Virus record (IMG/VR): IMGVR_UViG_2778261162_000007
From: a virus
Lineage: Duplodnaviria > Heunggongvirae > Uroviricota > Caudoviricetes
Reading direction: 5' to 3' (one strand)
DNA length: 47,425 nt
The notes beneath the pieces were generated by a model. That model was not told the origin of the DNA. It saw nothing but the letters and a program-made list of their open reading frames with translations, and searched no databases. Below, one piece after another: positions 45,737 through 47,179 of the stretch (position 1 is the first letter of the stretch; each line of letters opens with the position of its first letter). A program made the position numbers and the translations under genes.

Positions 45737-47179
45737 ATGAAAAAACTATTTGTAGCCTCTGTTATATTTACAGTTTCAGCAAATTCTTATGCATATAATT
45801 CTTATAATGCCGGTGATAATAGCCAAGCAACTGATAGTAATGCGACAGCTATTGGTGCATATGCAAATGCTTCAGGTTCTTCTTCTACAACAATTGGCGC
45901 TGTTTCAAAAACCGAAGGAGCCTATAATACTGCAATTGGTTCATATTCTTCATCTCAAGGTAACTCATCGTCAGCTATTGGCGCAAATGCAAATGTTGTT
46001 GGAAATAACTCGGTAGCCATTGGTTCATTTAGTAAAGTAAACGGTGATTCAGCTATAGCAAATGGTGCGGGTAGTGAGGCAGTCGCTAATTCTACAAGTG
46101 TAGGTGCTGCGTCTAAAGCAACCGGGGAAAACAGTGTTGCATTTGGTTCCTCCGCCCAGGCGACTGCAGGAGATACATTAGCTATTGGTGTAGGGGCTAC
46201 ATCTAATGCAGAAAATGCCATCTCACTAGGCTCACAGAGTGTGGCTGAACATAATAATAGTGTTGCCATCGGCGGGGGAAGTACAACTGACAGAGAGTAT
46301 AGTGTATCTTTTGGGACGGGTAATACTAATCGACAATTGACCCATGTTGCCGCAGGTACTGAGGATACTGATGGTGTTAACGTTAAGCAACTGAAAGATT
46401 ATACTGGGAATGAGATAGCTAAAAATAATACCGTAATTAATCAAAACATCAATAATGCCAAGAATGAATCACTGGCATATACAGATCAGCAGGTTACCAA
46501 AAATAATGCTGTGATAAATCAGAATATTAATAATGCCAAGAATGAATCACTGGCATATACAGATCAGCAGGTTACCAAAAATAATGCTGTGATAAATCAG
46601 AATATTAATAATGCCAAGAATGAATCACTGGCATATACAGATCAGCAGGTTACCAAAAATAATGCTGTGATAAATCAGAATATTAATAATGCCAAGAATG
46701 AATCACTGGCATATACAGATCAGCAGGTTACCAAAAATAATGCTGTGATAAATCAGAATATTAATAATGCCAAAAGCGAATCAATGGCATACACTGATCA
46801 GGAAGTTACGAAAAATAACGGTGTTATTAATAAAAACATACAATCAGCAAAACAAGAATCATTCGCATATACTGATACAAAATTTAACCAAATTAATGGG
46901 AAGATAAATTCAACATTTAAGCAGCTGAATGATAAGATAGAAGCTAATGCTAAAAAAGCTAATGCAGGTATTGCTTCCGTAGCAGCAATGACCAATATCC
47001 CGTATATGAATAACCAGACATTTAGTGCCGGCGTTGGGGTTGGTAACTATAGAAACGGTAATGCAGTAGCTGTTGGTGTTCAATACAAACTTAATGAAAA
47101 CACCAATATTCGTGCATCGTCTTCATGGAATAATACTGATGGAGCAGTAATCGGAGGGGGTATTGCTGTAGGCTGGTAA
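45737..47179 (+). CDS. Trimeric autotransporter adhesin, YadA/Eib-like
   Basis: Signal peptide MKKLFVASVIFTVSANSYA; Ala/Ser/Gly-rich head repeats; 26-aa tandem stalk repeats; C-terminal YadA-like anchor ...FSAGVGVGNYRNGNAVAVGVQYKLNENTNIRASSSWNNTDGAVIGGGIAVGW; AT-rich upstream region. Confidence 0.8.
   Translation: MKKLFVASVIFTVSANSYAYNSYNAGDNSQATDSNATAIGAYANASGSSSTTIGAVSKTEGAYNTAIGSYSSSQGNSSSAIGANANVVGNNSVAIGSFSKVNGDSAIANGAGSEAVANSTSVGAASKATGENSVAFGSSAQATAGDTLAIGVGATSNAENAISLGSQSVAEHNNSVAIGGGSTTDREYSVSFGTGNTNRQLTHVAAGTEDTDGVNVKQLKDYTGNEIAKNNTVINQNINNAKNESLAYTDQQVTKNNAVINQNINNAKNESLAYTDQQVTKNNAVINQNINNAKNESLAYTDQQVTKNNAVINQNINNAKNESLAYTDQQVTKNNAVINQNINNAKSESMAYTDQEVTKNNGVINKNIQSAKQESFAYTDTKFNQINGKINSTFKQLNDKIEANAKKANAGIASVAAMTNIPYMNNQTFSAGVGVGNYRNGNAVAVGVQYKLNENTNIRASSSWNNTDGAVIGGGIAVGW
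46421..46888 (+). repeat. 78-bp tandem repeat array (six copies, three identical) within the adhesin stalk
   Basis: Units start at 46421, 46499, 46577, 46655, 46733 and 46811; copies 2-4 appear identical, encoding KNNAVINQNINNAKNESLAYTDQQVT. Confidence 0.8.

Follow-up and report, generated by a model that had tools for sequence, protein, structure and literature searches.

A length-variable YadA-like trimeric autotransporter gene at the right end of a Rac-family Escherichia coli prophage

Results

A YadA-like trimeric autotransporter gene lies between tail-fibre remnants and attR

The IMG/VR virus record IMGVR_UViG_2778261162_000007 (Caudoviricetes) is a stretch of 47,425 nucleotides, which was analysed at its full length and is called the window throughout. 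Judged by its sequence, the window is a complete Rac-family E. coli prophage, and the annotation of its near-twin in EC11 reads intR, xisR, ralR, recT, recE, kilR, racR and ydaS/T, followed by terminase, baseplate and tail-fibre genes. At its right end lies a gene for a YadA-like trimeric autotransporter adhesin (TAA) of 480 amino acids, whose predicted stalk holds six tandem 78-bp repeats; alleles of this gene on a near-identical background carry three, four or five of them.

Pfam searches with the 480-aa protein matched five stretches to YadA_head (E 2.6e-16) and residues 425-479 to YadA_anchor (PF03895; E 1.4e-07, 31.9 bits against a cut-off of 22.7). RefSeq names identical alleles 'YadA-like family protein', and NCBIfam gave partial matches, far under cut-off, to YadA, BimA, Ata and EmaA. 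When the protein was compared with the PDB by phmmer, the heads of YadA, BpaC, SadA and BoaA and the anchors of YadA and AtaA were matched, and the best head match was the collagen-binding head of YadA (1p9h; E 8.8e-22). Matches to the anchor region in the PDB comprised 2lme, 9vnj, 3emo and 2gr7, Hia anchors included.

The same architecture is predicted by an AlphaFold2 (AF2) model of the monomer, built on a 27-sequence alignment with a mean predicted local distance difference test score (pLDDT) of 78. Regular short strands run through residues 23-190, with a pLDDT >90 in most 10-residue blocks, and a single helix extends from residue 216 to 419 with no interruption and no saddle, at a pLDDT of ~90 over most of the repeats. 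Four anchor strands follow at residues 429-438, 441-453, 456-465 and 471-478. All significant Foldseek matches in the PDB were trimeric autotransporters, among them the heads of BpaC, 1p9h, BoaA and CbpF and the anchors of Hia, AtaA and YadA; the head matched 1p9h at 38% identity with a template modelling (TM) score of 0.65 normalised to the target. The neck, which is a low-confidence part of the AF2 model, reads NRQLTHVAAGTEDTDGVNVKQLK and is a near residue-for-residue match to the YadA neck NRQLTHLAAGTKDTDAVNVAQLK of 1p9h. Read directly, the N-terminus MKKLFVASVIFTVSANSYA has the basic start, the hydrophobic core and the small residues at -3/-1 of a Sec signal peptide. On sequence matches and model alike, the product is a small lollipop-type TAA of type Vc secretion. 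A preliminary description of this DNA had proposed a trimeric autotransporter with a YadA-type C-terminal anchor, carried as cargo at the right end of the prophage; the PF03895 match, the four modelled strands, the PDB anchor matches and the position between tail-fibre remnants and attR (Table 1) all bear this out.

Table 1. Features of the right end of the window
Feature	Position	Strand	Basis
Cargo cassette: tail-fibre-assembly remnant, AT-rich leader, adhesin gene, terminator	44950..47254	+	Comparison with DH5alpha
Tail-fibre-assembly pseudogene fragment	~45013..45122	+	RefSeq annotation of five homologous loci
AT-rich non-coding leader, presumed promoter/regulatory region	45201..45736	+	G+C, blastn, upstream alignment
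Adhesin gene, YadA-like trimeric autotransporter, 480 aa (stop codon included)	45737..47179	+	Pfam, PDB matches, AF2, Foldseek
Sec signal peptide, residues 1-19	45737..45793	+	Read by eye from sequence
Head, predicted left-handed parallel beta-roll of YadA-type repeats, residues ~22-195	45800..46321	+	AF2, Pfam, Foldseek
Neck, residues ~196-222	46322..46402	+	Alignment to YadA neck
Stalk, one continuous predicted alpha-helix, residues 216-419, ~30 nm as a coiled coil	46382..46993	+	AF2
Six tandem 78-bp (26-aa) units, types A-B-B-B-C-D, residues 229-384	46421..46888	+	TRF, 78-bp cutting
YadA-type membrane anchor, four predicted beta-strands, residues 425-480	47009..47176	+	Pfam, AF2, PDB matches
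Likely intrinsic terminator, 10-bp stem AAAAGCCUGC…GCGGGCUUUU, then UGUUUU	47218..47255	+	RNA fold; cassette right edge
Prophage right-end (attR-proximal) DNA common to Rac-type prophages	47255..47425	+	Sequence identity

The repeat array fits a right-handed coiled-coil stalk

Tandem Repeats Finder (TRF) reported a period-78 array from 46421 with 5.1 copies and 95% matches, and cutting the sequence in 78-bp steps from this position yields six in-frame units, the last ending at 46888. Units 2, 3 and 4 are mutually identical at 78 of 78 positions, and three identical tandem 78-mers cannot have arisen by chance. Compared with them, unit 1 agrees at 71, unit 5 at 69 and unit 6 at 51 of 78 positions, and the 78 bases after unit 6 match at 36, so that there is no seventh unit. 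TRF and direct cutting thus agree with the preliminary description on the coordinates of the array, the 78-bp unit, the six copies and the three nucleotide-identical ones; its placing of the repeats in the stalk was likewise correct, the units lying within the AF2 helix between neck and anchor.

Each 26-residue unit (KNNAVINQNINNAKNESLAYTDQQVT) holds one YTD motif, of the YxD pattern, which recurs exactly every 26 residues. By Fourier analysis, hydrophobicity across the repeats peaks at a period of 3.72 residues, equal to 26/7 or 26 residues per seven turns; the period is 3.71 across the whole helix and 3.65 in the anchor-proximal segment. Right-handed TAA stalks, as described in daTAA, have 3.7-3.83 residues per turn and a YxD motif in which x is mostly Thr, and are confined to the stretch from the last neck to the anchor (PMC2373917). 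The units agree with this description on all three counts, in period, in the YTD motif and in their position between neck and anchor. Across relatives, YxD motifs are spaced mainly by 11, 19, 26, 30, 41 or 45 residues, all of which correspond to 3.67-3.8 residues per turn, and the repeat unit itself is 41 residues long in a Proteus penneri protein and 30 in a TAA of plasmid pKY178. Given these spacings, 26 residues is one of the unit lengths that a stalk of this type permits. A reading of the YTD motif as a beta-layer (alpha/beta coiled coil) was dropped in view of the unbroken AF2 helix and the exact fit of the daTAA description.

Unit number differs among near-identical alleles

We surveyed 5426 complete E. 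coli genomes by megablast with 44941..47425 as query. The whole region was found at the same chromosomal place in 13 genomes, and uspF and ompN, of the Rac attachment region, lie downstream in all five of the Rac-site loci whose annotation was checked. The array has five units in ten of these 13 Rac-site alleles, four in one (A2) and three in two (C41 and ZYB62), as counted on the sequence for NWU_3, JNEC-KY180, EC11, A2 and C41 and as judged from alignment span for the others. No complete genome among the 5426 has six units, the number in the window. Apart from the array, the background of the Rac-site alleles is 99.8-99.9% identical: outside the array, 1-3 nt separate the coding sequence (CDS) of the window from each of the five alleles with which it was directly compared. 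The closest prophage to that of the window is the one in EC11, with 99.9% identity over 20001..45000 (25 kb) and five units.

Sorting the units by type revealed how the alleles differ. Compared with A-B-B-B-C-D in the window, the EC11, NWU_3 and KY180 alleles are A-E-B-C-D, the A2 allele A-E-C-D and the C41 allele A-C-D, and metagenome contigs, which have three or four units, carry A-B-C-D, A-F-C-D or A-C-D; one such contig ends inside the array. Units B, E and F are set apart by single synonymous bases. An allele has between 0 and 3 internal units, and A, C and D, at the edges of the array, are constant.

Members of the gene family occur in 31 of the 5426 complete genomes and in several settings other than the Rac site. 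In a second lambdoid prophage (RM11911 and four others), the gene follows J/lom/stf/tfa and has five units, with homology to the window from 45317 onwards; a 1-bp insertion shifts the frame of these alleles after ~50 codons. In an island rich in insertion sequences (IS) near asrABC, there are five or four units; a 10-bp deletion is present in two of these alleles, and IS2 has inserted into another. Proteins of 66-77% identity are encoded on IncF plasmids, whose host isolates came from cattle, sheep, freshwater and humans, and on an E. albertii plasmid; the plasmid alleles appear to have five and four units, going by gene and alignment lengths. Within these other lineages, the internal units have lineage-specific substitutions in common, which indicates that they have been homogenised by concerted evolution in each lineage.

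The preliminary description had proposed comparing copy number among strains, with invariance in all isolates as the outcome that would speak against a variable array; the comparison instead revealed 3-, 4-, 5- and 6-unit alleles on a near-identical background. The slipped-strand variation that it foresaw stands as far as changes in length are concerned, whereas on/off switching is ruled out, because 78 is a multiple of three and a unit gained or lost alters length without switching the gene; the mechanism itself we infer.

Beyond E. coli, the nearest relatives come from Proteus, Providencia, Plesiomonas and Arsenophonus. These relatives and the low G+C of the adhesin gene (38%, compared with 48% elsewhere in the window) suggest a foreign origin. 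We found no full-length homologue among 50,697 phage genome records and no confirmed relative in species-representative genomes scanned with peptide patterns. An exact look-up of seven alleles in a large protein collection found none of them, and a search of a large protein database gave relatives of <=51% identity among the matches listed.

The gene is part of a cassette with an AT-rich leader

The limits of the cassette are given by an adhesin-free Rac-site prophage in E. coli DH5alpha, with which homology stops in the DUF4376 gene at 44949 and restarts at 47255; 49 bp take the place of the intervening cassette. On this alignment, 44950..47254 forms an insertion relative to the DH5alpha prophage, with the DUF4376 gene on its left and attR-proximal DNA on its right. 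At the homologous position of five Rac-site loci, RefSeq annotates a frameshifted and incomplete 'tail fiber assembly protein', and we mapped its coordinates onto the window via the offset from 44941. To the left of the cassette, at 44188..44940, lies what is left of a second tail-fibre gene, which is stfR-like, and of its DUF4376 partner (a 140-aa open reading frame (ORF) at 44518..44940, PF14301). The DH5alpha relative has a full 3.1-kb fibre gene and a DUF4376 gene at the equivalent place, so that most of the fibre gene was deleted in the lineage of the window.

The region upstream of the adhesin gene (44941..45736) has a G+C content of 33% against 48% in the rest of the window. The preliminary description had called this region AT-rich and free of ORFs, which holds in part: G+C is as low as 21-32% per 100 bp in 45201..45800, but it is 39-49% in 44941..45200, and small ORFs of 57, 48 and 45 aa are present. 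The 57-aa ORF (45180..45353), which follows an AAGGAG, was taken as non-coding, having no Pfam match and no conservation in the second prophage lineage; in our reading, substitutions between alleles fall at all three of its codon positions. Portions of the leader, which the preliminary description had put forward as a possibly silenced regulatory region, move with the gene, ~420 bp (45317..45736) being common to the second prophage lineage and 93 bp (45644..45736) to the island lineage by blastn and alignment, which is consistent with regulatory signals in this region. Substitutions between alleles are denser in the leader, at 7-11 per ~500 bp, than in the non-repeat CDS, at 1-3 nt per ~1 kb.

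A search of 44900..47425 against Rfam at E <= 1 gave zero matches. Four 'promoters' called inside the repeats proved to be a single AT-rich match present four times and were dropped as a signal. The loop of the putative terminator hairpin is 12 nt long, outside the 3-8 nt allowed by the pattern scanner, and the RNA fold z-score of the whole 96-nt terminator piece was not significant. The right-end DNA beyond the cassette is 94-97% identical to DH5alpha, LY180 and phage Rac-SA53; in its attR-proximal part, a 10-bp GGCAAAAATGG-like motif is repeated ~4.5 times (47359..47404), and these repeats may be recombinase arm-type sites.

The protein resembles YadA, Saa and Yal and stands apart from Eib

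YadA of Yersinia enterocolitica and Y. pseudotuberculosis has the same signal peptide, Ylhead beta-roll, neck, right-handed YxD stalk and four-strand anchor as the window protein; its head (1p9h) is the best head match, its neck is nearly identical and its anchor (2lme) is matched. The window protein is nevertheless no orthologue, since it scores 104 bits against a cut-off of 750 bits in the NCBIfam YadA model. The YadA gene lies on the pYV plasmid, whereas the window gene lies in a prophage, and the YadA stalk consists mainly of 15-residue repeats (PMC2373917), whereas the window units are 26 residues long and are near-identical tandem copies.

Saa, the autoagglutinating adhesin of E. coli that make Shiga toxin (STEC), encoded on plasmid pO113, is likewise an E. 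coli TAA on a mobile element in which the number of direct repeats varies in the 3' half that encodes the stalk. It differs in that its gene is plasmid-borne, and its repeat unit, reportedly described by Paton and colleagues in 2001 as 37 aa long, is longer than the 26 aa of the window. The size of saa differs through the direct repeats at its 3' end, with five variants known (PMC4060028, PMC6024878), and by description a saddle and an N-terminal domain are absent from Saa, as they are from the window protein (PMC13534694).

Kotaka et al. (Nat Commun 2026; PMC13534694) named two further clades as Yal, lollipop TAAs of unknown function from STEC that lack the enterocyte effacement locus (LEE), which are nearer to Saa than to Eib and have no saddle or N-terminal domain; this description fits the window protein. 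Since the five-unit allele WP_077784021.1 lies in JNEC-KY180, one of the 13 genomes of that study, it is probably among its 'EibG-like' sequences; the text of the paper does not specify the Yal genes of KY180, and neither repeats nor copy number are taken up in it. Plasmid pKY178 of E. coli JNEC-KY178, which is said to carry YalA (PMC13534694), encodes a 442-aa YadA-like TAA (12026..13354 of locus L020) directly after its conjugative type IV secretion genes, and this TAA is probably that YalA. Its YTD repeats are 30 residues long, three of them in tandem, and it has 36% identity to the window protein, on which ground we dropped YalA as an identity for the window gene.

The preliminary description had called the protein Eib-like. 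Eib proteins (EibA, C, D, E, F, G and H) are likewise E. coli TAAs associated with prophages; they resemble the window protein in size, their head is YadA-like and their stalk is a coiled coil, and the window gene shares their prophage-borne location. Canonical Eib proteins have a conserved N-terminal domain and a saddle, and their IgG binding has been mapped to a conserved Asp in the stalk, whereas ClaA/B, which are related TAAs distinct from Eib, do not bind IgG Fc (PMC13534694). The window protein has no N-terminal domain ahead of its head in the AF2 model, where the head strands begin at residue 23, straight after the signal peptide, and no saddle between right- and left-handed coiled coils, since its helix is uninterrupted; its stalk has no detectable similarity to EibD. 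We made the Eib sequence comparison with EibD 2xqh (residues 160-418, Ig-binding stalk included), which matched the head and neck of the window protein by phmmer (E 3.6e-05), ranking under YadA, BpaC, SadA, BoaA and AtaA, and which had 20% identity by Foldseek. The stalk and anchor as a query matched no Eib in the PDB at E <= 1, where EibD is the sole Eib structure, and none of the E. coli or Enterobacteriaceae matches P0043, P0054 and P0086, checked against the PDB as possible Eibs, was near EibD. By sequence match and predicted fold, the protein is therefore Eib-like in position and general shape, and the family membership implied by the earlier label does not hold.

Other genes of the window and related proteins in phages

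Elsewhere in the window, a 391-aa ORF of ~35% G+C (39036..40211, + strand) lies within the baseplate gene cluster and matches HSDR_N (Pfam, E 5.6e-14), the nuclease-like domain at the N-terminus of type I restriction R subunits. RefSeq labels it 'type I restriction endonuclease' in identical prophages, and PADLOC gave no match for it. It has the look of a further moron of low G+C, possibly related to defence. A 257-aa ORF in a low-G+C patch (12909..13682, - strand) has a KilA-N domain (E 4e-27), matches BstA in PADLOC (E 3e-21) and is likely a BstA-type abortive-infection protein. The ORF at 23561..25000 (+ strand) has an EC11 homologue annotated 'anti-CBASS protein Acb1 family protein', which lies between the terminase gene and a DUF2213 gene of the head module; it has no PADLOC match.

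Headless proteins of ~190 aa are encoded by the virulent Proteus phage Privateer (gp126, 2815..3399 of locus L021), Cronobacter phage vB_CsaP_009 and Salmonella phages FSL SP-058/076. They are 36-40% identical to residues 346-466 of the adhesin (coiled coil and YadA anchor) and are annotated 'tail protein' or 'agglutinating adhesin'; the 'tail protein' label of the Privateer gene looks doubtful, because it lies among small early-type genes and not among tail genes. Escherichia phage phiSTEC1589-Stx1c carries, directly after Rz and bor, a 403-aa ORF annotated 'terminase large subunit' (2164..3375 of locus L022). By tblastn its C-terminal part matches the anchor region of the TAA (E 7e-15), and it is probably another prophage-borne TAA under a wrong annotation.

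Discussion

Both stalk repeat polymorphism in TAAs, from Saa, and prophage-borne TAAs, from Eib, were already known; the window protein is a separate member of the TAAs that had not been characterised. We consider it likely, with a clear margin over an even chance, that 45737..47179 is a 'moron', a cargo gene carried by a Rac-family prophage at its attR end, encoding a lollipop YadA-like TAA with a right-handed stalk that varies in length module by module. The six 26-residue units would be the modules of this stalk. Because one unit spans a whole number of turns, its gain or loss would leave the core register unchanged whilst altering the length by ~3.9 nm (26 x ~0.15 nm), and the helix would measure ~19 nm with three units and ~30 nm with six. 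Identical internal units could be gained and lost by unequal homologous recombination or replication slippage and, as these changes are in-frame, the outcome would be variation in length rather than on/off phase variation. Stalk length would in turn set how far the head projects past the lipopolysaccharide (LPS) or capsule layer. By analogy with YadA, Saa and Eib/Cla, the protein may serve in surface adhesion or autoaggregation and possibly in serum resistance.

Several observations weigh against this reading and are taken here with the alternatives that they favour. The strongest of these, to which we give a sizeable chance if one somewhat short of even, is that unstable repeats yield the differences in copy number as a neutral by-product, with no functional effect. 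We weight it substantially because adherence mediated by Saa was uncorrelated with repeat number in follow-up studies (PMC6024878, PMC4060028), a precedent by which length variation may be without a phenotype. Five units are moreover the clear mode, the differences between internal units are all synonymous, and copy number is constant within the related strain groups NWU_1/3/4 and mip270_05/22; since these groups keep one number, the array is variable on population time scales and not hypermutable on short ones. What speaks for function is that only whole, register-preserving units have been gained or lost and that the edge units are strictly conserved, although the mechanism alone would predict both.

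That the gene is silent or decaying cargo, rarely or never expressed owing to xenogeneic silencing of AT-rich foreign DNA, with an array under no constraint, we regard as unlikely. Silencing of such AT-rich DNA by H-NS is reasonable to expect, and ~600 bp around the start codon fall in the range of lowest G+C given above. A promoter scan found 12 promoter-like sites against 11.7 expected in shuffled sequence, and direct reading revealed no evident Shine-Dalgarno sequence ahead of the ATG. Eight of the 31 alleles are disrupted (five by a 1-bp insertion, two by a 10-bp deletion and one by IS2), and the gene is therefore often dispensable. Going by the title of reference 36 in PMC6024878, prophage eib genes depend on IbrAB for activation. 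Against this, the window allele and all 13 Rac-site alleles are intact, and the few differences in the CDS compared with the many upstream, across five alleles, suggest that the protein may be under purifying selection; silence under laboratory conditions would in any case not equal a lack of function.

We think it improbable that the sixth unit is an assembly artefact in which three identical 78-bp units were miscounted, even though the count of six comes from the window's own assembly. The lack of a six-unit allele in the complete genomes, the five units of the nearest prophage and the metagenome assemblies, which have three or four units and of which one breaks within the array, indicating that assemblers struggle here, would all agree with a miscount. 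The window allele, however, is not the five-unit allele plus one, for it has no E unit and three B units, and ordinary paired reads are able to bridge its identical block of 234 bp. Whatever the count in the window, alleles of three, four and five units are documented independently, so that the variation is real.

A more ambitious possibility, on which we would place little weight, is that the YTD units are more than spacers: much as the stalks of Eib and YadA bind host factors, they might be ligand-binding modules for, say, a complement regulator, immunoglobulin, matrix or glycan ligand, with copy number tuning avidity. Alternatively, the protein might form an adjustable fibre layer by which the prophage shields its lysogen from superinfecting phages or clumps lysogens. 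If either were true, the repeats would let the prophage tune how it interacts with the host, and the length polymorphism would not be a passive one.

Eib genes reportedly lie next to tail-fibre genes, according to Sandt and Hill. Very improbable, and least probable of all, is that the stalk binds IgG or IgA Fc as an Eib-family protein with one more site per repeat: a prophage site (Eib genes are phage-encoded; PMC6024878), a place beside tail-fibre genes, the shared lollipop architecture, the weak match to EibD and the location of Eib Fc-binding sites in the coiled-coil stalk (PMC13534694) speak for it, but that match covers generic head and neck and is weaker than those to other TAAs, no Eib is matched by the stalk and anchor, the conserved saddle and N-terminal domain are both missing, and the related ClaA/B bind no IgG.

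Among the E. coli prophage adhesins called 'Eib-like' is at least one separate lineage that had not been characterised; it moves among prophages, islands and plasmids and is found mostly in ruminant, poultry and environmental strains. In annotation, position alone is no ground for calling its genes immunoglobulin-binding; short-read assemblies are, in addition, likely to collapse or break the array. The gene offers a natural series of one prophage adhesin with three, four, five or six stalk modules on a near-identical background, and the series could be used to relate stalk length to adhesion, autoaggregation and serum resistance against differing O-antigen or capsule layers.

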